A DNA stretch of 64,000 bases from a virus. Of this stretch, positions 2,062-13,493 are shown piece after piece; the stretch's first letter is position 1, and each line of letters starts with the position of its first letter. The translations under genes were made by a program, and so were the position numbers. The stretch is taken from the IMG/VR virus record IMGVR_UViG_3300046665_000434, positions 64,001-128,000 of that record; one strand, 5' to 3'. The notes beneath the pieces are model-generated. The model searched no databases and was not told the DNA's origin. It was given only the letters and a program-made list of their open reading frames with translations.

Positions 2062-2433
2062 ATGAACGAGTTCTCGTACAATAGCTTCAATACGTTCCTG
2101 AAGTTTCCAGACCCTACCCCGGAAGAAGTCCGGAAGATGTGCGTCAAAGTCCTCGATGAAGTGATGACGAAAGTCTCCGACTATCTGGCGACAACGATGG
2201 TGCTTCCGAACAAGTCCCGTGTTATGGCACAGCAGAACAAACGCAAACTCGCCAATTATTACCGAGCTCTGCTGAACCATGATGTCGAGAAACAGTTCGA
2301 CATCTATTTCCCGTTCGTAGGTAAAGGTCCTCACTGGCGAGTCTTTTGGACAGCTGACAAATCCACCATCTATATCTCTGGTGTTTATCACGATCACCAG
2401 AAGACGTATGCGGTGGAAGCGGTTGAAATGTAA
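2062..2433 (+). CDS. hypothetical protein
   Basis: ATG 2062 after GGTGA, follows upstream stop. Confidence 0.65.
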   Translation: MNEFSYNSFNTFLKFPDPTPEEVRKMCVKVLDEVMTKVSDYLATTMVLPNKSRVMAQQNKRKLANYYRALLNHDVEKQFDIYFPFVGKGPHWRVFWTADKSTIYISGVYHDHQKTYAVEAVEM

Positions 2434-2550
2434 AAAGTTACGGAAGGTGATAAGGTTATGTAAAACACCGACTGCCGCACTCATGCAGCCAGGTTGGTGA
2501 ATTACGAGGGATACCCGGCAATCCCAGCGCTCTGCGCTAAATCCGGCTTC

Positions 2551-2627
2551 GCAGTATTAGCTCAGTTGGTTAGAGCGCAGCACTGTCACTGCTGAGGTCA
2601 CCGGTTCGAGTCCGGTATATTGCGCCA
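2551..2627 (+). tRNA. tRNA-Asp(GTC)
   Basis: full cloverleaf; CAGCA-ctGTCac-TGCTG; G73-CCA. Confidence 0.95.
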
Positions 2628-2634
2628 CTTTCAT

Positions 2635-2710
2635 TCCAAGGTAGCTCAGTCGGTAGAGCAGCACGCTGTTAACGTGTTGGTCCCTGGTTCGAATCCAGGT
2701 CTTGGAGCCA
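2635..2710 (+). tRNA. tRNA-Asn(GTT)
   Basis: cloverleaf; ctGTTaa loop; GCCA end. Confidence 0.95.
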
Positions 2711-2716
2711 CACAAA

Positions 2717-2792
2717 GGGTTAGTAGCTCAATTGGCAGAGCACCGGTCTCCAAAACCGGTTGTTGCAAGTTCGAGTCTTGCTTAGCCCGCCA
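2717..2792 (+). tRNA. tRNA-Trp(CCA)
   Basis: cloverleaf; CCGGT-ctCCAaa-ACCGG; GCCA end. Confidence 0.95.
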
Positions 2793-2798
2793 TGTTTT

Positions 2799-2885
2799 GG
2801 ATGATGTAGAGACAGATGGCTACTGTCAGCGGACTGTAACCCCGCCGCTTCATGCTAGAGGTTCAATTCCTTCCTTCATCCACCA
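2799..2885 (+). tRNA. tRNA-Tyr(GTA), somewhat divergent
   Basis: ctGTAac loop, variable arm, TTCAATT T-loop, ACCA end; some stem mismatches. Confidence 0.8.
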
Positions 2886-2892
2886 CTTTAAT

Positions 2893-3016
2893 AGTCTTGT
2901 AGCTCACTGGTAGAGCGCGTCCTTTCGGTTCGACTCCGAACATGCCTCGGCTTCGGCCAACGGCGTGATCTGGATACACGGACGAGGTAGCAGGTTCGAT
3001 TCCTGCCTAGACTTCC
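2893..3016 (+). tRNA. interrupted tRNA-Val(TAC)-like gene with 50-nt insert (2925-2974) after U33
   Basis: acceptor AGTCTTG/CTAGACT, canonical D and T arms, anticodon stem CGTCC/GGACG; TT + TACAC rebuilds a 7-nt loop. Confidence 0.75.
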
Positions 3017-3023
3017 TAGCAAT

Positions 3024-3191
3024 AACTCTGTAGCTCAGTTTGGATAGAGCGTCCTCATTTTTCCCCTAGGGGGATTGCAGGTTCAAGTCCTGTCCATTGC
3101 AAGTCCCCTAGGGGAGCCTTGGCTTTGGTGGCGGAATTGGTAGACGCGAACACGAGGAAGGTCACGGGTTCGATTCCCGTCATGAGTTACC
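3024..3191 (+). tRNA. interrupted tRNA-Val(AAC)-like gene with 90-nt insert (3059-3148) that is a permuted Leu-type tRNA
   Basis: acceptor AACTCTG/CA(T)GAGTT, stem TCCTC/GAGGA; AT + AACAC rebuilds the loop. Confidence 0.75.
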
Positions 3192-3198
3192 TGTTAAT

Positions 3199-3295
3199 GA
3201 TCCCCACTCCACTAAATCCCTCAAGGCGTTCTCTTAGGAGTTGCTGAGCGATGGTGGTGCGAGTAATAGCAAGTTAAAACCTTGTGGGGGTCACC
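3199..3295 (+). ncRNA. tRNA-framed RNA (acceptor stem + long rod + T-like arm)
   Basis: GATCCCC/GGGGGTC-A-CC; GCAAG-TTAAAAC-CTTGT; long imperfect hairpin between. Confidence 0.55.
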
Positions 3296-3303
3296 TTTTC
3301 AAT

Positions 3304-3380
3304 TGGGGTATAGCCAAGTTTGGTTACGGCAACGGGCTTTGATCCCGTCATCGCTGGTTCGAATCCAGCTGCCCCTTCCA
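3304..3380 (+). tRNA. tRNA-Gln(TTG)
   Basis: ACGGG-ctTTGat-CCCGT; T arm GCTGG-TTCGAAT-CCAGC; CCA end. Confidence 0.9.
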
Positions 3381-3385
3381 TTTAC

Positions 3386-3465
3386 GATCCTTTGCGACAC
3401 GGTTGCGGTGCCGATCCTGCGATAGTGAAGCATTAGTCCCGGCACTCGACGCCGGGAGGATCACC
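3386..3465 (+). ncRNA. degenerate tRNA-like RNA
   Basis: GATCCTT/GAGGATC-A-CC; CCGGC-ACTCGAC-GCCGG T-like arm. Confidence 0.5.
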
Positions 3466-3475
3466 CTTTCGTTAT

Positions 3476-3564
3476 ACTAGGTTCCTGCCTCGGGCAGGCC
3501 AGCTGTAGGTGACTGCGCGCAACTCCACCTCGGCTGTATGGATAATCGCCATGACCTGGTCACC
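3476..3564 (+). ncRNA. cloverleaf-shaped tRNA-like RNA with long central arm
   Basis: ACTAGGT/ACCTGGT; CCTGCC/GGCAGG; CAGCTG-AGGTG/CACCT-CGGCTG; TATGG-7nt-CCATG. Confidence 0.5.
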
Positions 3565-3570
3565 CTTTAT

Positions 3571-3658
3571 AGTCCTCTAGCTCAGTTGGTTCAGAGCGTC
3601 CCCCTATCTTGCTAACGACATGGGGAAGGTCGTAAGTTCGAATCTTACGAGGACTTCC
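3571..3658 (+). tRNA. interrupted tRNA-Val(GAC)-like gene with 11-nt insert (3606-3616)
   Basis: perfect acceptor AGTCCTC/GAGGACT, stem TCCCC/GGGGA; CT + GACAT rebuilds the loop. Confidence 0.8.
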
Positions 3659-3665
3659 TATTTAT

Positions 3666-3809
3666 AACTCTATAGCTCAATTGGTAGAGCGCCATCATCT
3701 TTAGGTTGCGGGTTCGATTCCCGCATGATCCGCATGGATCATTAGCTCAATTGGCAGAGCAGAAGATCACGCGATGGAGGTTGCAGGTTCGAGACCTGCT
3801 AGAGTTTCC
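3666..3809 (+). tRNA. interrupted tRNA-Val(CAC)-like gene; 69-nt insert (3699-3767) is a complete circularly permuted anticodon-less tRNA
   Basis: outer acceptor AACTCTA/TAGAGTT, stem CCATC/GATGG; inner T arm, acceptor ATGATCC/GGATCAT and D arm; AT + CACGC rebuilds the loop. Confidence 0.85.
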
Positions 3810-3811
3810 TA

Positions 3812-3929
3812 ATGCTAGACCCACCGGGAAGCGGGTAAAACGCCGAGGGGTTGAAATTGGCGTGATGGCCTAGAGGCTCATGTTGGCCCGAATGAGAGTG
3901 AGCGCATTGAAATAATCGGGCCCCCGCAT
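3812..3929 (+). ncRNA. candidate structured RNA
   Basis: non-coding; stems ACGCCGA/TTGGCGT and GGCCCGA/TCGGGCC; possible pseudoknot. Confidence 0.35.
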
Positions 3930-3962
3930 CAACTACTACTACTAGACTAGATGGTGATGCTA

Positions 3963-4493
3963 ATGTTCATGTTGAAAATTATGTCCGGTGAAGACCGGCC
4001 AGATTCTGATGTCTCGAAGTCGTTCAAGGGCGTTATCCTTGGCGATGGGATGTCGTTCGAGTTCTCCCGTAAGGTAACGACTGAAACGGCTCTGCTGACA
4101 TTGACGAGCCCAGATGGCTCTCACGTCACTATGGACCTCGCCGGTAACGCTTACATCGTAAGTAACACCGGTAAGACCGTGGCGTCATTCGCTTACAGTA
4201 ACACCAAGCTCGTTGACGCTGAGGTAGCTAACAGGCCTACGTTCAGCGAGCACGAAGATCGTCGACAGCGAGCAGCTGCGAAGCCGCTCAACTCTGTCTC
4301 AGTGAGTGCTGAAGCGGAAGCACTTACCAGTGCCCGCATCCTCTGGTTGAGATTACACGAACCTAAACGCCTTGACCGGTTGCGTGTATGTCGAAGAGCG
4401 GACGGCAGTCTCGTAGTAAATGATCAGGTCGACACGGTCCGACAATTGGATCAGTGGGGTGTCCCAAACACCTACGGCGAACTACTGAATTAA
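3963..4493 (+). CDS. hypothetical protein; C-terminal domain paralogous to 8371..8685
   Basis: WLRLHEP..RRADGSLVVN vs WLELNDP..RRDDGSLVIN. Confidence 0.7.
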   Translation: MFMLKIMSGEDRPDSDVSKSFKGVILGDGMSFEFSRKVTTETALLTLTSPDGSHVTMDLAGNAYIVSNTGKTVASFAYSNTKLVDAEVANRPTFSEHEDRRQRAAAKPLNSVSVSAEAEALTSARILWLRLHEPKRLDRLRVCRRADGSLVVNDQVDTVRQLDQWGVPNTYGELLN

Positions 4494-4502
4494 AGAGATT
4501 TG

Positions 4503-4664
4503 GCTCCAAGCGGAATCGGGGGATTTCTAACTTGGGGCGTTGTCAGAACAGACGTTGGGCGCGGTTGCTTGAAAGATAGCGTGCTAGCCCATCGAGTTAT
4601 GCTTCCTCCGGCGGCGTTCTGATAACTAAGTGACGGGCTTCAATCCTAAGCAAGCCGGGGACCA
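4503..4664 (+). ncRNA. candidate multi-hairpin RNA
   Basis: GCTCCAAG/CTTGGGGC; GTTGTCAGAAC/GTTCTGATAAC; ends in ACCA. Confidence 0.4.
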
Positions 4665-4685
4665 AATTCTATTGGAGATAACAAC

Positions 4686-5024
4686 ATGGCGTTGGTAAAA
4701 GTACGGGTTGCGGTGACTCGCGAAAGTCTGCTGGGTCGTCTTCTGCAACTCGATCCAGAGATGGATCTCACTGACAGTATCAAGGCGGTTGAAGTTGAGG
4801 CGGTTATCGATGAAGCTGGCGTGAATCATCCCGATTGGGAATTCAACATCAGCACCATTGCTCCGTTCATCACCGGCGTTGGTACTGTCGCAGGCCATGG
4901 CAAGATCAGCTTTACAGTAAACATGCAAGATGGCGCCCTCACCATTGAGTCTACAGAGGCTGCTAAAGACCTGCTGCTGGTTCTCAAGGTTACGACCGAG
5001 AATCATAACCACCGTCCGGTCTGA
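4686..5024 (+). CDS. hypothetical protein
   Basis: GGAG SD, 112 aa. Confidence 0.7.
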   Translation: MALVKVRVAVTRESLLGRLLQLDPEMDLTDSIKAVEVEAVIDEAGVNHPDWEFNISTIAPFITGVGTVAGHGKISFTVNMQDGALTIESTEAAKDLLLVLKVTTENHNHRPV

Positions 5025-5036
5025 CAAGTTTTTTTT

Positions 5037-5111
5037 AGTATCGTAGCTCAGAGGTAGAGCGCGGCCCCGATAAGGCTGAGGTCCGTGGTTCGAAACCACG
5101 CGGTACTACCA
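5037..5111 (+). tRNA. tRNA-Ile(GAT)
   Basis: CGGCC-ccGATaa-GGCTG; ACCA end; C33 is unusual. Confidence 0.88.
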
Positions 5112-5334
5112 TGTGTGCTGATGCGCCGATGTCTTCGACTAGCAGCCTTTGAGCGGGTAGGTCGTGAGCATTGGCGCATTGGCGCCTCTTTTCCCCTCCG
5201 CAGGGGGAGACTTGAGACTATAGGGTATCTTGGTATCACGCCTGAGAATGTGTGCTGGCATATCCTGAAACCTCTGCTGGGAGGTGTCTTTCGTATGTAG
5301 GGGTACTCAGCTCCGGCATCCCGCGACTAATTTC

Positions 5335-6042
5335 GGATAGATAGGGAAGTGGCCAAACCCATCGGATTGACTTATTCTATGTATTTAAACATGGGATACG
5401 TCAATGAACTGCATCCACTGTCAGCGAGAATGTGTTAATTGGAATTCTCGGCGTGCACACGAGTGTCGTTGTCCGATGAATCCCAATCGGAAAGTCTTTA
5501 GCCCCAATCTAGGCAACCGACATTCTGAAGCTACTAAGGAGAGATGTAGGGCTGCCGCTCAACAGCAACATCGGCAAGGTTTAAGTGCCGGTTTCCCTAA
5601 CTGGGAAGGTAGAACTCATCGAGAAGAAAGTAAGTTAAGAATATCCCAAGCGCTGATGGGTAACAGGAATGGTAACCATCGAGGGGATCGACAGTCCTAC
5701 TATCGCGGGATCAGAATGGATTCTAGATGGGAGGTTCGTACTGCCGAGTGGTTAGATGACATGGGTTGTTATTGGAGATATTCTCCGAGGGGATTCCAGC
5801 TATCCGACGGGCGACACTACTATCCTGATTTCTTTGTCTATGATGATGAAGGTTGTTTAGATTACCTGATCGAAGTTAAAGGTTATTTTAGAGAAGGTAA
5901 TCGTTTGAAATTCGAAACGTTTAAACGAGAATATCCTGAAATAGAAATACGGTTGTGGGAGAAACCTCAACTTAAAGAATTGGGTATCCTTTAGAGTCCG
6001 GTCTCTATGAGTACGTCGGTTCGAATCCGACTCTGTCCTCCA
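5335..6042 (+). tRNA. type II tRNA (Leu TAG-like) interrupted after U33 by a 623-nt endonuclease-encoding insert (5369-5991)
   Basis: 5' half GGATAGA..GGG-AAGTGGCCAAA-CCC-A-TCGGA-TT; 3' half TAGAG-TCCGG, variable arm, GTCGG-TTCGAAT-CCGAC-TCTGTCC-T-CCA. Confidence 0.8.
5404..5994 (+). mobile_element. putative homing endonuclease (Zn finger + NUMOD3 repeats + PD-(D/E)XK nuclease) inside a tRNA anticodon loop
   Basis: CxxC..HxxxC; HSEATKER and HREESKLRIS NUMOD3-like motifs; SRWE..YYPDF..IEVKG. Confidence 0.8.
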
Positions 6043-6060
6043 ATTGATGGAAAGGTAACC

Positions 6061-6489
6061 ATGTCCACTACGCCTCATGTTCGAGTTGGTGTCGCAGTCC
6101 TTATTCGGAGGGCTAACGGTAAGCTTCTCGTTGGTCGTCGTCAAGGAAGTCATGGCGCTGGTACTTGGACTGTCCCTGGTGGACATCTGGAGTTCGGTGA
6201 ATCGATCGAAGACTGTGCTCGACGTGAAGTGGCTGAAGAGACTGGCCTTACTCTGCTGAGCGTATCGGTAGGTTTTGCCGTAACCAATGATATCTTCACC
6301 GAAGTCAACAAGCACTACATCACCGTCTGGGTGGAAGCTACCGTCGGTGAGATTGACGAAGCCGAAAACCTAGAGCCTGAGAAGTGCGATGGTTGGGAAT
6401 GGTATCATGGACCAGAGGTTCCCACACCTCGATTCCTAGGTCTCCAGAACTTGATAGATCAACGTCCAGCCTACTGGAGTTATACTTGA
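6061..6489 (+). CDS. Nudix hydrolase (MutT/NUDT15-like)
   Basis: Nudix box GGHLEFGESIEDCARREVAEETGL; EPEKCDGWEW; ATG 6007 lies inside the tRNA, so 6061 is preferred. Confidence 0.9.
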   Translation: MSTTPHVRVGVAVLIRRANGKLLVGRRQGSHGAGTWTVPGGHLEFGESIEDCARREVAEETGLTLLSVSVGFAVTNDIFTEVNKHYITVWVEATVGEIDEAENLEPEKCDGWEWYHGPEVPTPRFLGLQNLIDQRPAYWSYT

Positions 6490-6498
6490 TACCATATT

Positions 6499-6627
6499 TC
6501 CATGATAGCTACTCGGAAAGGCGCCGTCAATGGGTTCGACTCCCGTTACCCTTAGGGGTATGTTGCCACCCGTACGGGTGGCTTGGCATAGACGGAGATT
6601 GTAGGTTCGACCCCTGCTCATGGAACC
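6499..6627 (+). ncRNA. tRNA-like RNA with a 62-nt structured anticodon-loop region
   Basis: TCCATGA/TCATGGA-A-CC; CCGTC/GACGG; a second T arm inside the loop. Confidence 0.7.
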
Positions 6628-6669
6628 TAATCTTCAGCACAGTAGCCTATTCACGTTAGGAGTATTTTC

Positions 6670-6819
6670 ATGAGTATCGAAAACGAAAAGATCGTAACCG
6701 AACGGAAAGCTTCCGGGCCAAATCTCTCGATGCCGAAATGGAAACCCAGTCAGAAGCTCGCTGATGAGATCGGCGATGAACTTGCGGAACTGATGGCGAA
6801 AGAAGCCTCGGCCAAGTAA
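6670..6819 (+). CDS. small hypothetical protein (49 aa)
   Basis: AGGAG SD; MSIENEKIV...KEASAK; below ORF-track cutoff. Confidence 0.6.
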   Translation: MSIENEKIVTERKASGPNLSMPKWKPSQKLADEIGDELAELMAKEASAK

Positions 6820-6834
6820 GCACAACTCTTTAAT

Positions 6835-6938
6835 CCCTGGTCGACCATGCGGGGTTGGGCCTATACCCACGATACGATACGATCTAGCTACACGTCCGTC
6901 GTGGTTATTTGTCGGGAGTTCGATCCTCTCACTCGGGG
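6835..6938 (+). ncRNA. degenerate tRNA-like element
   Basis: GGGAG-TTCGATC-CTCTC T arm; CCACGA/TCGTGG long arm; weak acceptor stem. Confidence 0.35.
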
Positions 6939-6955
6939 CTGTATTTGGAGTCGCT

Positions 6956-7159
6956 ATGCTTGACAACGTTGAAGAAAATGTTGAGTACAGGTCTCCATCA
7001 GGGATCAGGTTCAAGGTAACCAGTATAGCGAGACATGCTCAGGATTGTTCCTGGCCCATGATCGTATACACTAATCTCGAACCTACCAAAGACGCACCTA
7101 CCGGTACAGTCTGGGTTATCGCTGAGTCGATATTTCTGAGAACGTTTTCGCGGATATAG
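6956..7159 (+). CDS. DUF1653-like protein
   Basis: V..IARHAQD....IVY..L....VWV...F motif. Confidence 0.6.
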   Translation: MLDNVEENVEYRSPSGIRFKVTSIARHAQDCSWPMIVYTNLEPTKDAPTGTVWVIAESIFLRTFSRI

Positions 7160-7223
7160 TTTAATGGTAGAGCCTCAGCCTTCCAAGCTGTTGACCCGAG
7201 TTCGATTCTCGGTATCCGCTCCA
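7150..7223 (+). tRNA. tRNA-Gly(TCC)
   Basis: GCGGATA/TATCCGC; ctTCCaa loop; TCCA end; overlaps upstream stop codon. Confidence 0.93.
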
Positions 7224-7232
7224 ACACAGGTC

Positions 7233-7277
7233 GCCACCTACCCTTCGGGTAGGTGGCTATACCTTCTTCTTTTTTTT
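7233..7277 (+). terminator. terminator of tRNA cluster
   Basis: GCCACCTACCC-TTC-GGGTAGGTGGC and long T run. Confidence 0.8.
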
Positions 7278-7345
7278 GTTAACGTAAGTTGCGTTTATTA
7301 TGTAGATAAATTCTTCAATACAGTTTAGCAGTAAGAGAGGTACTG

Positions 7346-7627
7346 ATGTCCTCAACCGTTCACGAACTTAATGATAACGTGTTCAGAAAGTATCTGATCT
7401 ACGCAGTCGTCGAAGACAGTGATTGTCGGCCACTTCAGCTACAGCTCCACCTGATGATGGAGCACGTCTATACCCGTAAGGGCTTGCATCCTGACGTTCA
7501 GAAAGAGGAGTTCGAGAAGTCTCTCTTTTCGTGGGCGCGTAATAACCGGTTGTTCCCTGCCCGCATTACGCCGACAGTAGAACGGTTCTTGAAAGCTAAT
7601 AAATCTAACGGGAGGATTGCAGCATGA
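7346..7627 (+). CDS. hypothetical protein
   Basis: GAGG SD. Confidence 0.65.
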   Translation: MSSTVHELNDNVFRKYLIYAVVEDSDCRPLQLQLHLMMEHVYTRKGLHPDVQKEEFEKSLFSWARNNRLFPARITPTVERFLKANKSNGRIAA

Positions 7628-8328
7628 CTCAAGAATACGCAAGCACCAAGATCGTCACCGCCTGGCACGCACAAGCGCCTAACTCTGGCGGTAAAGGTGA
7701 AGACGGCTATAGCGTCAAGTACAAGAATGGCTACGTCAGCTGGTCACCGACCGCTGCATTTGAAGAGAGTAGCGTCGCTCTCGGTAACATCAGCCACTTC
7801 CCTCCATTCCTGCAACGCCTGATTGCAGAACACGCCATCTTGAGTGACAAACTCACTAAGCTCCAGGACTTCATCGATTCGTCTGATTTCCAGATACACA
7901 TCGACGATCCTGATGAGCGTGCGCGCTTGAATCTGCAAGAGTCCCTGATGGCCCGGTATGCCGAAGTGCTGGCTGTCCGTATCGCCGTCCACAAAGAGAA
8001 AGTCGTTAATGCACCGCCTGCGACCATCACTCCAGTCATCGTGAGGTACGCCGGTAAAGGCCCGCATGAACTCCAGGAGCAAACCGTCGCTTTGGGCGAC
8101 ATGCCTGAATCGTTTGATCTCGAGAAAGTCAGCGAGGCTGTTGCAGCAAAGGTTGGCGATGTCGTATATCAGGAAGACGTCTATGAACTCGACGGCCAAG
8201 GTAGTCCTGTCGTGAACGTAGGCCATGATGGACAGCAGGTGTTTGTGATCAAGCACCACAAAGGCACGCCCGTTATCCAGGAACCGATGAAGTTTGGCGA
8301 TGAGTTCAACTTCAACAAAAACGACTGA
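7624..8328 (+). CDS. multidomain phage protein (GYxVxYxxGYxSWSP domain + crAss001_48-like helical domain)
   Basis: TKIVTA..GYSVKYKNGYVSWSPTAAFEE; RLIAEH..L..KL..L..FI...Q..LM..Y..VL..RI. Confidence 0.6.
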   Translation: MTQEYASTKIVTAWHAQAPNSGGKGEDGYSVKYKNGYVSWSPTAAFEESSVALGNISHFPPFLQRLIAEHAILSDKLTKLQDFIDSSDFQIHIDDPDERARLNLQESLMARYAEVLAVRIAVHKEKVVNAPPATITPVIVRYAGKGPHELQEQTVALGDMPESFDLEKVSEAVAAKVGDVVYQEDVYELDGQGSPVVNVGHDGQQVFVIKHHKGTPVIQEPMKFGDEFNFNKND

Positions 8329-10413: not shown

Positions 10414-10845
10414 ATGTCCATTAGACCGCCAGTGTTGGCGATTGATCGCCAGAAACATTATCGTGATGCATTTACCGATAAAACGATGCGGCTCTATCTG
10501 CCCGTCAACGATCGGGACGAGGTGGTCGAGCACACTAACGGAGAGTGGTTGAAGTGCTGGACCTGGACCGATGTTGAAGGTGAGGTCCCGGTTGCGCTGT
10601 CATCGACAGCGGTGGGTATTTCCCACGCTCTGTTGTGGGCTCCTCGAGAAGATGCCCGTTTGACGCCAGATGGCGTGGTGATCGTCATGGCGCCATTACC
10701 TCGCAGTGTGGCATTCAATAGCCTCAGTAAGCTCGACCAATGGTCACGGCATCTGGAGCGGTCACCTGAATTTGATATCGAGTATCGAGTCGAGACAAAA
10801 CCGATATTCGTCGTTAATGACCCTGAAGAAAATCCACGTAATTAA
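10414..10845 (+). CDS. hypothetical protein
   Basis: ORF in operon. Confidence 0.65.
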   Translation: MSIRPPVLAIDRQKHYRDAFTDKTMRLYLPVNDRDEVVEHTNGEWLKCWTWTDVEGEVPVALSSTAVGISHALLWAPREDARLTPDGVVIVMAPLPRSVAFNSLSKLDQWSRHLERSPEFDIEYRVETKPIFVVNDPEENPRN

Positions 10846-10861
10846 TAAGGAGGGTATTCCC

Positions 10862-11953
10862 TTGGCTGAGAAGAAACCTTTGCTGCTGTTCTCCGGTGGT
10901 CTGGACTCCACGTACATCGCGTACAAACACTTCATTAAACAAGAACAGTTCGATATTGTCTATATCGATGGTCGCCAATCTCGTCGTAAAATCGAGGTCG
11001 AGGAGGCTGTTCGTGGTGAGATCCTCAATTGGTTACGTAAGCATACTGAGTTCTCCTGCTATCCTCGCCAACACTCCGCGGCGTCTACCGTGGACTGGTC
11101 TAACGCTACCAGCGCCGGGTTTCGTCAGGCTATGGCTTGGTTTGTATGCGCTCTGGAAGTGGTCGATCCACACGTACACTCTTGCGTGGAAATCGGCTAT
11201 GTTGCAGGTGATCAGATCTCATCCAATCTCGATACCCTGATCGCCGCTTGGAACGCGCTCTGGCCGGTAGCTAAAATCAGCGACAGCGTGGTCCCATTGA
11301 AATTTCCTCTTCGTTATACGACGAAGACTGAAATCATGAACCATATGCCGAAGGATCTGTACGAACTCACTTGGGTGTGTGAGCTTCCTAAGGGTGATGT
11401 TCGTACAGGGTATAAACCTTGTGGTGACTGTGTTCCATGCGATACCCGAGGAATGCTCGAGTACTCCAAAGCTCGTCGGAAAATGACTGCTGAAGAGCAA
11501 AGTCAGCTCGATGCATGGATCGGAAAAACTCTCGATCTGCGCCAACTGGCGAAACCTGAAATCGTGGCAGCGACTGCAAAGGACGCATATAGCGTTACGG
11601 ATAGTGTACAGGAGATCGTCGAGATCGCCAAGAAACTTTCCGAACCTGCCGATGAGAAGCCGGTCACTTACCAACTTGACTGGTCGAAGGTAAAGCAGGG
11701 AGGTACTGATGTCGCCAATGCGTTACAACAGCTTACCGATACAGCGCTGGCGATCAATAAACTCCCTCCTTCGGAAATGGCAAAACTGTTTGTGCTCGAT
11801 GATCACGGCGACCCTCTTCCAGTTGCAGACGGCGCGGTAAAATGGGTAGATCCGATGACATCTGTGCTTAAACGGGATCTTGAGGAACGCGGGTATATGG
11901 ATGCGATCCCATCGGGGCCGGTCAATGACTTACGGAAGGAGGCTGACCTGTAA
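10862..11953 (+). CDS. QueC-like PP-loop ATPase with C-terminal extension
   Basis: LLFSGGLDST PP-loop; TWVCELP..PCGDCVPC Zn site; TTG start after AGGAGG. Confidence 0.75.
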   Translation: MAEKKPLLLFSGGLDSTYIAYKHFIKQEQFDIVYIDGRQSRRKIEVEEAVRGEILNWLRKHTEFSCYPRQHSAASTVDWSNATSAGFRQAMAWFVCALEVVDPHVHSCVEIGYVAGDQISSNLDTLIAAWNALWPVAKISDSVVPLKFPLRYTTKTEIMNHMPKDLYELTWVCELPKGDVRTGYKPCGDCVPCDTRGMLEYSKARRKMTAEEQSQLDAWIGKTLDLRQLAKPEIVAATAKDAYSVTDSVQEIVEIAKKLSEPADEKPVTYQLDWSKVKQGGTDVANALQQLTDTALAINKLPPSEMAKLFVLDDHGDPLPVADGAVKWVDPMTSVLKRDLEERGYMDAIPSGPVNDLRKEADL

Positions 11954-12705
11954 TGCTGCAATCTATCGATAGCCTCGCCCTGAAGACCATGTTCAAAGTC
12001 AGGCTCGAGAAATTGGGCCTGTTGTTCGTACATGACTTCATCAGGATTCACAACCCTGGACGTAACACGTACCACAACACCACCCACATGCTCGGTGTCG
12101 CTGAGATGGCTACTCGTCTGTGGGATATCGAAGTAGGTCCAGCTGAGCACGATGAGGCCGGTAACTGTCTCGAAGAGCTCGTGGTGGCTGCGTTATTCCA
12201 CGACTTCGACCACAGTGCTGGTGAACTCCCTGACAAGGAGAACATAGCTGACGCCAAGCTTGGCATCGAACAGATGCTGGATCGGAAAGAGTACGACGGT
12301 CAAGTCGGCCTTTACATGATCATGGACGACGGGTTTATCCCGGCCGTTCATCGATTGATGGATGTTACGGAATACCCGTTCGTACATGAGCCAGTCAGTA
12401 CGTCTGAGAAGATCATCCGCGATGCGGATATCCTCTATACGTTCCAGAGCCGTACAGGGCCGATCGTACATGGCCTGTATCGAGAGCTGATGAAGTCTGG
12501 ACGTCTGACTATCGGCATGACGTTCGGACAGTTCCTGGAAGGTCAGCAAGGCTTCCTGGATGGTGTGCAGATGTTCACCAAGACGGGGGCGGTGTTGAAG
12601 GAAGCGTTGACTGCTAAGGTCATTGCCGAACAAAAGCGTTTCGATTACGAAGTCCTCAATGAACGAGGACAGATCCTCAAAAACCAGTTCAGGAATAAAC
12701 GATGA
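11953..12705 (+). CDS. HD-domain phosphohydrolase
   Basis: YHNTTH..ALFHDFDH..IIRDAD. Confidence 0.8.
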   Translation: MLQSIDSLALKTMFKVRLEKLGLLFVHDFIRIHNPGRNTYHNTTHMLGVAEMATRLWDIEVGPAEHDEAGNCLEELVVAALFHDFDHSAGELPDKENIADAKLGIEQMLDRKEYDGQVGLYMIMDDGFIPAVHRLMDVTEYPFVHEPVSTSEKIIRDADILYTFQSRTGPIVHGLYRELMKSGRLTIGMTFGQFLEGQQGFLDGVQMFTKTGAVLKEALTAKVIAEQKRFDYEVLNERGQILKNQFRNKR

Positions 12706-13493
12706 GTCTACTATCCGATCGGCAGATCAGGGCACGCTGTACACCGCCTGAGTTTTACGCAGTGACTACCCATCAGAAGACTAATCAGCAACTGGTCTTC
12801 CCGTATGGTCGGGATCAACTGATCAAGAATTCGAGAGATCTTGATCAGGCCCGTGGGGATGGTGCGACCATGGTCGATTGTCCCCGGACAATGGGGCCGG
12901 TTACTCATTCCGCCACGGCTGAACTGTTGCGCAAGTCAGGCTGGAAACCAATGATCTCGCCCTTCTCACCAGAGTTGGTCAGGTATCACGGGAAGACCAG
13001 AATCATCAGCTGGGGTCTGAGCTCCTACGGGTACGACATTCGTATCTCTGGGGTTGACCTCAAGCTCTTCAACAACATCGGTGGACAGATCGTTGACCCG
13101 ATGCGGATCCAGACTGGCCGCTACGCAGTGCCGGAAGTGATGCACGATGATGAGTTCGATCTGGACTACTTCATCTTACCGCCTAACAGTCTGGTGCTGG
13201 CTCACACGGTTGAAAGCTTCTGTATCCCACGGGACATCCTCGTGACGTGCATTGGCAAGTCAACCTATGCCAGAGTGGGTGTGCACCAACTGGTGACGCC
13301 GCTGGAGCCTGAATGGGAAGGCGAATTGGTGCTCGAGATTGCATCGACTACCAACTATCACACCCGCGTCTATATCGGCTGCGGTATCGCTCAGCTGATG
13401 TTCAACAAAGCTGATGAAATCTGCGAGGTCAGTTACAAGGACCGTGACGGTAAGTATCAGGGACAGACGGGTACTCAAGATGCGCTCGTTTAA
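12702..13493 (+). CDS. dcd: dCTP deaminase
   Basis: LSSYGYDIR; GKSTYARVG; TPLEPEWEGELVLEI; GKYQGQ. Confidence 0.93.
   Translation: MSLLSDRQIRARCTPPEFYAVTTHQKTNQQLVFPYGRDQLIKNSRDLDQARGDGATMVDCPRTMGPVTHSATAELLRKSGWKPMISPFSPELVRYHGKTRIISWGLSSYGYDIRISGVDLKLFNNIGGQIVDPMRIQTGRYAVPEVMHDDEFDLDYFILPPNSLVLAHTVESFCIPRDILVTCIGKSTYARVGVHQLVTPLEPEWEGELVLEIASTTNYHTRVYIGCGIAQLMFNKADEICEVSYKDRDGKYQGQTGTQDALV

Follow-up and report, generated by a model that had tools for sequence, protein, structure and literature searches.

Interrupted tRNA-Val-like genes and a split tRNA-Leu gene in the tRNA cluster of a phiKZ-like jumbo phage

Are tRNA genes whose anticodon loops are interrupted by extra sequence spliced into working tRNAs, or do they encode RNAs of another kind? 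This question is raised by a tRNA cluster in the virus record IMGVR_UViG_3300046665_000434 of IMG/VR, from which we analyzed a window of 64,000 nucleotides (nt; positions 64,001 to 128,000 of the record), whose coordinates are used throughout. The record is 154 kb long and about 62% complete; it belongs to a phiKZ-like jumbo phage with a major head protein of 755 amino acids that is 36% identical to that of the nearest isolate, Pseudomonas phage pPa_SNUABM_DT01. In an initial annotation, five bodies in this cluster were described as tRNA genes interrupted after U33, four for Val and one for Leu, which would be either spliced by an undescribed protein-dependent system or kept unspliced with a folded domain in the anticodon loop. 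The answer that we favor, with slightly more confidence than doubt, is that five genes of the cluster encode unspliced, non-decoding mimics derived from tRNA-Val and that the tRNA-Leu gene has been invaded at the DNA level.

Genes with oversized anticodon loops

ARAGORN with its intron option finds four of the bodies, at 2893-3016 (insert of 50 nt), 3571-3658 (11 nt), 3666-3809 (69 nt) and 5335-6042 (621-623 nt), and with the Rfam tRNA model (RF00005) 2893-3014 reaches 49.5 bits and 3571-3656 reaches 55.3 bits. Our own parse confirms all five bodies and their inserts of 50, 90, 11, 69 and 623 nt. The oversized loops lie at 2923-2979, 3057-3153, 3604-3621, 3697-3772 and 5367-5996 and are 57, 97, 18, 76 and 630 nt long in the genes that start at 2893, 3024, 3571, 3666 and 5335, respectively. 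A sixth gene, at 6499-6627, had been overlooked and has a loop of about 62 nt. As encoded, none of the six has the seven-base anticodon loop of a canonical tRNA. The outer bodies form the acceptor, D, anticodon and T arms of a cloverleaf, with the exception of 3024; the arms that had been called canonical in all five bodies are mostly so, apart from a bulge in the acceptor of 3024 and a U-U mismatch in that of 2893.

When the first two and the last five bases of each loop are joined in silico, we reproduce loops with U33, a purine at 37 and the anticodons TAC, AAC, GAC and CAC for Val and TAG for Leu. ARAGORN calls three of the joined forms tRNA-Val and one tRNA-Leu; the gene at 3024, which has an extra base in its 3' acceptor strand, is not called at default settings, its joined form included. 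A junction directly after U33 works in all five genes, but it is not the only one that fits, because the last seven loop bases alone are an equally canonical loop in 3666 and 5335; joining three bases to four alters two anticodons. The occurrence of all four bases at position 34 across the four Val-like genes is not significant, since it is expected by chance in about 9% of cases (4!/4^4). The statement that the window holds no intact Val or Leu tRNA extends to the whole 154-kb record, as judged by ARAGORN and Rfam. The only ordinary tRNAs there, according to default ARAGORN and Rfam, are those for Asp, Asn, Trp, Gln, Ile and Gly (Table 1).

The 3' ends divide the interrupted genes into two groups. 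The genes at 2893, 3024, 3571, 3666 and 6499 all end in N-C-C-U and leave the final A of CCA unencoded, whereas CCA is encoded in 5335-6042 and in every ordinary tRNA. We therefore group the five Val-like genes in one family and set the Leu gene apart, so that the five-gene family proposed initially gains the gene at 6499 and loses the Leu gene, which is a homing-endonuclease insertion. Between any two of the four Val-like bodies recognized from the start, the outer stems show 4-10 double compensatory changes and no more than two unpaired positions, and the spacers of these genes show that the pairs (2893, 3024) and (3571, 3666) are copies of one two-gene unit.

The twin cloverleaf at 3666-3809 and related RNAs

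The RNA encoded at 3666-3809 is laid out as two cloverleaf bodies placed head to head through their anticodon-type stems. The outer body is an open tRNA with an acceptor (3666-3672/3800-3806), a D arm (3675-3690), an anticodon-type stem (3692-3696/3773-3777) and a T arm (3783-3799). The inner body is a circularly permuted, closed tRNA-like domain, in which a closing stem of 5 base pairs (bp; 3698-3702/3762-3766) and a five-base variable region are followed by a T arm (3708-3724), a 7-bp acceptor (3725-3731/3736-3742) closed by a 4-nt loop, and a D arm (3745-3760). One base connects the two bodies on one side and six bases on the other, the latter (3767-3772) reading U-CAC-GC. That the inner domain is a functional tRNA encoded in permuted form was also considered and rejected, as its joined ends leave no anticodon loop.

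The Sequestin-like protein encoded at 7624-8328 led to a relative of this RNA, through a homologue with 58% identity. This homologue lies on Logan contig L126, which is syntenic with the window and retains tRNA-Gly, homologues of the open reading frames (ORFs) at 4686-5024 and 7346-7627, and the Sequestin-like, QueC-like, HD and dCTP-deaminase-like genes. Directly after its tRNA-Gly the contig encodes a 150-nt RNA (L126:66-215) whose architecture matches that of 3666-3809 exactly. Across the eight helices, 28 of the 42 pairs are identical and the other 14 are double compensatory changes, with 0 pairs broken or half-changed, and 39 of the 50 aligned unpaired bases are identical. In alignment A3, which covers 37 pairs in seven helices, 100% of the positions are paired and 11 pairs are doubly changed; 0 of 500 shuffles score as high, and controls with slid partners do not reach the observed pairing. 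The inner Levitt-type pair covaries as well, being A:U in 3666-3809 and G:C in the relative. Comparison of the two sequences is thus strong evidence that 3666-3809 is a structure under selection. The least conserved part is formed by the connecting strands, which have two and ten bases in the relative. The relative keeps U-GAC, yet excision would leave it with C33 under the 2+5 rule or with a pyrimidine (U) at 37 under the 0+7 rule. It also encodes CCA, unlike the five family members of the window.

The contigs of this relative all end in tRNA-Gly, which places orthologues of the other family genes beyond reach. Other routes to relatives gave little. Neighboring proteins led to none that were useful in viral contigs, and the two relatives identified by major capsid protein (L004 and L005) carry no tRNAs. 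No homologue was found for the 180-amino-acid ORF, and DNA patterns of the gene-pair spacer and of the twin RNA had no match in viral or metagenome collections. Searches of IMG/VR, JGI metagenomes and isolated phages likewise yielded no relative, and blastn of the genes against isolated phages returned single-tRNA pieces only.

The gene at 6499-6627 was found (52.9 bits) with R1, a covariance model derived from 3666-3809, the best of the genes. This model is unspecific, ordinary and tandem tRNAs also scoring 40-70 bits, and its candidates were then checked by hand; on the three nearest isolated phages it reported two ordinary tRNAs and nothing else. The outer body of 6499-6627 has a perfect acceptor (6499-6505/6618-6624), an anticodon-type stem (6524-6528/6591-6595) and a T arm (6601-6617). 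Its loop contains a T arm (6530-6546), a closed 5-bp stem (6547-6560) and a 7-bp hairpin (6565-6582); the inner T-loop is identical to the one in the insert of 2893, and the fold has a z score of -2.4 relative to shuffles. The 8-nt strand 6583-6590 that precedes the 3' half of the anticodon stem contains neither U33 nor NAC, and simple excision therefore cannot give a canonical anticodon loop.

Most inserts of the family include tRNA-like pieces; those of the remaining members are less complete. The loop of 2893 can be folded so that a T-arm-like hairpin (2924-2940) precedes a closed 6-bp stem enclosing a tetraloop hairpin (2941-2967), and no inner D arm is found in it; this predicted inner fold is weakly supported. 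In 3024 a 10-nt palindrome occurs twice (3063-3072 and 3105-3114), and pairing of its copies would form a 12-bp stalk that encloses a T-arm-like hairpin (3077-3093), with a tRNA-Leu-like acceptor strand and D arm downstream at 3122-3147. A complete permuted type II cloverleaf was tried for this insert and rejected, as the palindromes pair with each other even when the T arm is enforced. The modeled folds of both 2893 and 3024 are uncertain.

Viral contigs were scanned with a pattern in which two D arms flank a short gap and the T loop after it. The scan gave 110 matches, 20 of which have a perfect 7-bp closed inner acceptor (about 0.1% expected by chance). Most of these 20 are tandem arrays of YrlA-like modules, and two unrelated phage contigs have the design of an open outer and a closed inner body: L097:7573-7702, which adjoins tRNA-Met and tmRNA, and L066:4839-4975, which sits in a complete 61.8-kb phage. 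The connecting helix of these two RNAs retains no anticodon remnant. Tandem closed permuted modules, each with a T arm, a closed 7-bp acceptor and a D arm, were also seen in or near tRNA clusters of L020, L025, L030, L055, L075, L095, L113 and other contigs, none of which reaches the Rfam gathering score for YrlA.

The inner domain of 3666-3809 resembles YrlA RNA (RF02553), the tRNA-like Y RNA of bacteria and phages, in the order of its closing stem, variable region, T arm, closed acceptor and D arm, all of its stems being paired and conserved in the relative. Positions 3700-3767 align to positions 23-88 of the Rfam model with 41.8 bits (E 5.6e-7), below the gathering threshold of 69. The two also differ: a Ro60-binding motif of the GNCGAA type is absent from all five RNAs and a Ro60 gene from the record, and where YrlA has its handle, 3666-3809 has a complete open tRNA body with an acceptor end of its own. 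The RNA is therefore not filed as a YrlA member, the Ro60 handle, the Ro60 gene and the score all being at variance. YrlA of M. smegmatis has a 7-bp closed acceptor that is a substrate of RNase P, after which CCA is added, and an origin of YrlA from a dimeric pre-tRNA was proposed by its authors (Chen et al. 2014, PMC4201824; bioRxiv 10.1101/312249). Another possible parallel is found in Lak megaphages, where "enigmatic" inserts in tRNA anticodon loops were reported that are not recognizable ribozymes, one being possibly tRNA-shaped; the insert is present in some alleles and missing from others, and it was assumed to be spliced (Devoto et al. 2019, PMC6784885). These share with our genes an insert in the anticodon loop and the lack of a ribozyme, whereas the inner domain described here is circularly permuted and closed and its orthologue gives no canonical loop. 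The T4 RNAs rnaC and rnaD are also stable RNAs of a tRNA cluster, and rnaC ends in a T arm and an acceptor-like stem; we rejected them as homologues, as their folds, by which alone they were compared, differ, with no second cloverleaf and no sequence relationship. No RNA in which a closed permuted tRNA-like domain is joined to an open tRNA body is described in the literature that we searched.

The split tRNA-Leu and the rest of the cluster

The insert of the type II tRNA-Leu(UAG) is almost entirely filled by an intact ORF, the TAG stop codon of which is also the anticodon triplet. The encoded protein has a Cys-rich N-terminus, a NUMOD3 motif and a C-terminal PD...EVK nuclease motif. Pfam reports NUMOD3 (4.6e-6) together with weak matches to DUF1064 and Phage_endo_I, PHROG points to endonuclease/resolvase families (about 1e-12), and a sequence search of PDB gave no match. 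There are 74 homologues, and we inspected eight loci (L007-L014) that encode four of them, at 50-61% identity. In the near-identical L007 and L008 the endonuclease gene interrupts the anticodon loop of a tRNA-Tyr whose exons are intact, and in L014 it interrupts a type II tRNA whose 3' exon is truncated. In L009 a relic 5' half of tRNA-Tyr is followed by the endonuclease gene and then by a complete tRNA-Tyr; L010, a short contig with the same arrangement, shows only the gene directly 5' of tRNA-Tyr; in L011-L013 the gene stands directly 5' of an intact tRNA-Tyr.

With its intact nuclease ORF, its DNA-binding module and its variable position in or near the target gene, the window protein is, on sequence grounds, a homing endonuclease, with cleavage predicted. 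Exon decay and a spare intact tRNA in the relatives fit the invasion of a dispensable gene at the DNA level and would not be expected of a spliced insert. We conclude from the sequence context that a homing-endonuclease gene has invaded the tRNA-Leu gene at the DNA level; the split tRNA is probably inactive. SegB of T4 is likewise encoded among phage tRNA genes, but it is a GIY-YIG enzyme whose gene lies between genes, whereas the protein described here combines NUMOD3 with PD-(D/E)XK and is encoded inside a tRNA.

Two observations concern the surroundings of this endonuclease family. The short L007 contig that holds a split tRNA-Tyr also encodes a phage tRNA-Pro(CGG) with a real group I intron (L007:194-506; 93.2 bits in Rfam). 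In addition, tRNA-Tyr genes are the usual company of the family, and the window cluster has a type II tRNA-Tyr(GUA)-like gene at 2799-2884 (+) with encoded CCA and an odd D arm with a 5-bp stem. ARAGORN does not call this gene, which matches only tRNA-Sec, and weakly, in Rfam (23.5 bits) and may encode a non-canonical tRNA.

Table 1. Features of the tRNA cluster, in window coordinates.
Feature	Position	Strand	Remarks
tRNA cluster	2551-7223	+	holds all Val-like genes, the split Leu gene and the ordinary tRNAs
tRNA-Asp, ordinary	2551-2627	+	CCA encoded
tRNA-Asn, ordinary	2635-2710	+	CCA encoded
tRNA-Trp, ordinary	2717-2792	+	CCA encoded
c1, Val(UAC)-like body	2893-3016	+	tail N-C-C; one mismatch in acceptor
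c2, Val-like body	3024-3190	+	1-nt bulge in outer acceptor
tRNA-Gln, ordinary	3304-3380	+	CCA encoded
c3, Val(GAC)-like body	3571-3658	+	perfect stems; unstructured loop; tail N-C-C
c4, twin-cloverleaf RNA	3666-3809	+	open outer tRNA, closed inner tRNA-like domain; tail N-C-C, no A
tRNA-Ile, ordinary	5037-5111	+	CCA encoded
tRNA-Leu(UAG), type II	5335-6042	+	split in anticodon loop; CCA encoded
endonuclease ORF	5404-5994	+	196 amino acids
c6	6499-6627	+	found by R1; tail N-C-C
tRNA-Gly, ordinary	7150-7223	+	CCA encoded

Several other elements of the cluster were noted. Three spacers of about 100 nt each (3191-3300, 3381-3470 and 3471-3569, +) all end in G-R-TCACC-Y-TTT, a motif that occurs three times in total in the 154-kb record, once per spacer, and that pairs with a complementary stretch near the start of each spacer; this suggests related structured RNAs or processing elements. 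After tRNA-Ile, at 5186-5211 (+), a T-rich lead is followed by a C4-T...A-G4 hairpin, which recurs twice in the insert of 3024 (3059-3075 and 3102-3116) in a loop-less, palindromic form and may be a small repeated element or a terminator-like hairpin. The non-coding interval from 6821 to 7150 includes a T-arm-like hairpin at 6905-6935 (+), around which neither R1 nor ARAGORN finds a cloverleaf. Outside the cluster, a block of QueC-like, HD phosphohydrolase and dCTP-deaminase-like genes at 10706-13493 (+), which is kept at L126:3423-6221, may be a nucleotide- or DNA-modification module.

Unspliced mimics, introns or scars

Group I introns interrupt the anticodon loops of tRNA genes, for example in tRNA-Leu(UAA) of cyanobacteria and plastids, and some of them carry a homing-endonuclease ORF. 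The inserts of the window resemble them in position; they differ in having no group I core, in being too short at 11-90 nt and, in the case of the 623-nt insert, in consisting almost entirely of an ORF. No group I core (RF00028) was detected in 2400-7400 at E values up to 1, and the same method gave 93.2 bits for a positive control, the tRNA-Pro intron at L007:216-459. No group I or group II ribozyme or other Rfam family was found in the inserts, the YrlA match being sub-threshold. In the 154-kb record we found no EndA, RtcB, Rnl1, Rnl2, PNK-type (AAA_33) kinase or CCA-adding enzyme, with no match to PF01974, PF01139, PF09511, PF09414 or PF13671. The pair of a splicing endonuclease and an RtcB- or Trl1-type ligase, which marks archaeal and eukaryal introns, is thus missing from the record. 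No shared motif is seen by eye at the borders between exons and inserts, where no formal bulge-helix-bulge scan was run.

These results bear unequally on the two alternatives that had been put forward. A new protein-dependent splicing system found no support, while an unspliced RNA with a folded domain in place of the anticodon loop fits the Val-like genes: the two-domain structure of 3666 is conserved, and neither the L126 RNA nor 6499 gives a canonical loop. Since the relative and the fifth member fail in this way and no splicing genes were found in 154 kb, we regard unspliced mimics as the best reading. The stronger arguments for it are these non-canonical loops, the closed permuted inner domains and the unencoded A76; the negative searches for machinery are a weak argument, as the record is incomplete and they cover phage genes only.

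Several observations weigh against unspliced mimics. Joining in silico does restore canonical Val loops in three genes, and U-NAC has been kept in all four original Val-like genes and in the relative though the neighboring stems have diverged, which argues that the triplet still matters and is compatible with splicing too. The energy fold of 2893 is no better than that of shuffles (z -0.31), the acceptor of 3024 is defective, and 3571 has only 11 extra bases, which are unstructured. An orthologue is available for 3666 alone among the family genes. Finally, the 154-kb record has no Ro60 (TROVE) gene, and none was matched in five further records that carry such modules, including L097 and the complete 61.8-kb phage.

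Splicing would mean that these are true tRNA-Val and tRNA-Leu genes with introns at or near 33/34, removed by an undescribed protein endonuclease and ligase, of the phage or of its host, that measure from the tRNA body and for which the content of the intron would not matter. This would agree with the fact that unrelated inserts of 11-623 nt hit the same loop position in five genes and that a single rule restores canonical loops, four of the joined forms being accepted by ARAGORN. U33, A35, C36 and the purine at 37 persist in all four Val-like genes despite diverged stems, the interrupted genes are the only Val and Leu genes that the phage has, and unexplained tRNA introns, one possibly tRNA-shaped, have been recorded in Lak megaphages (PMC6784885). 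Nevertheless, we consider splicing quite unlikely. The L126 twin RNA and 6499-6627 would be left without usable anticodon loops, and RNase P or Z would cut inside the inner domains and not at the exon borders because these domains are closed and permuted. The record lacks the ribozymes, nucleases, ligases, kinase and CCA-adding enzyme listed above, A76 is unencoded in all five Val-like genes, and the decayed exons and spare intact tRNAs that accompany relatives of the endonuclease insert would be needless if that insert were spliced. More doubtful still is a two-sided proposal: either the inserts are true introns, and a protein-only pathway of the phage or its host cuts on either side of 33/34 regardless of the insert and reseals the loop to yield four tRNA-Val isoacceptors and a tRNA-Leu, or, as a weaker variant, the unspliced twins are recognized, and perhaps charged, by valyl-tRNA synthetase (ValRS) via A35/C36 and form Ro60-independent decoys.

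It is also conceivable that most of the genes are dead scars, left where endonuclease cuts in anticodon-loop DNA were repaired with tRNA-gene or hairpin filler, and that their bodies are intact only through recency. The cluster does contain an anticodon-loop homing endonuclease whose relatives leave relic halves and truncated exons. The acceptor bulge of 3024, its imperfect inner stems and its two palindromes related to the hairpin at 5193 would suit such an origin, as would the mismatch and the lack of a significant fold in 2893, the 11-nt unstructured remnant in 3571 and the presence of one such gene only, beside tRNA-Gly, on the contig of the relative. Against this, 3666-3809 is clearly under structural selection, and a fragment spanning two neighboring tRNA genes would not give a closed 7-bp acceptor with a 4-nt loop, a feature that recurs in viral contigs far above expectation. 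The N-C-C-U end common to five genes and the inner T-loop common to two suggest a maintained family, and the outer stems diverge through double compensatory changes while staying almost fully paired. We hold scars to be unlikely, though less so than splicing.

If the five genes do encode unspliced mimics, they would be a paralogous family transcribed within the tRNA cluster. We infer that host enzymes process the transcripts, the outer acceptor and T-arm halves being trimmed like those of tRNAs and the absent A76 being added. The extra RNA would take the place of the anticodon loop; in 3666-3809 it would be a second L-shaped, closed permuted domain of the YrlA type that stacks on the anticodon stem of the outer body, with a short U-NAC strand left exposed. 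Such a twin RNA would be unable to read codons. Instead it would most likely act by mimicry, occupying one or two proteins for which the elbow of a tRNA, its acceptor end or the Val identity bases A35/C36 are the recognition features; the most economical guess is that the putative targets are ValRS via A35/C36, processing or modification enzymes, or host defense nucleases that target tRNAs. By analogy with YrlA of M. smegmatis, RNase P may open the inner acceptor, which would yield a two-strand RNA with two tRNA-like ends. The likeliest origin of the twin cloverleaf is a tandem tRNA-Val dimer, the strands of which would have re-paired in a domain-swapped manner into a nested pair instead of two cloverleaves. 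Compensatory changes would then have locked the nested fold while the loop of the first copy shrank, and the "anticodon" strand would be the former loop of the second copy; a dimer origin would account for an entire Val-type loop standing uninterrupted on the 3' side of 3666. Among the paralogues, 2893, 3024 and 3571 may be remodeled or decaying copies.

The endonuclease loci document a PD-(D/E)XK/NUMOD3 homing endonuclease family specialized for type II tRNA genes, in the DNA that encodes the anticodon loop. Were splicing to prove true instead, it would be the first such pathway in bacteria and their viruses. If unspliced mimics are the correct reading, "intron-containing" phage tRNAs reported by gene finders may be non-decoding RNAs, and jumbo and smaller phages would encode a class of tRNA mimics, each an open tRNA-like outer body joined through its anticodon stem to a closed YrlA-type domain, that lies outside Rfam and lacks the Ro60 that defines known Y RNAs. 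This would widen the repertoire of viral tRNA mimicry and, for YrlA, would supply a plausible intermediate on the proposed route from dimeric tRNAs.

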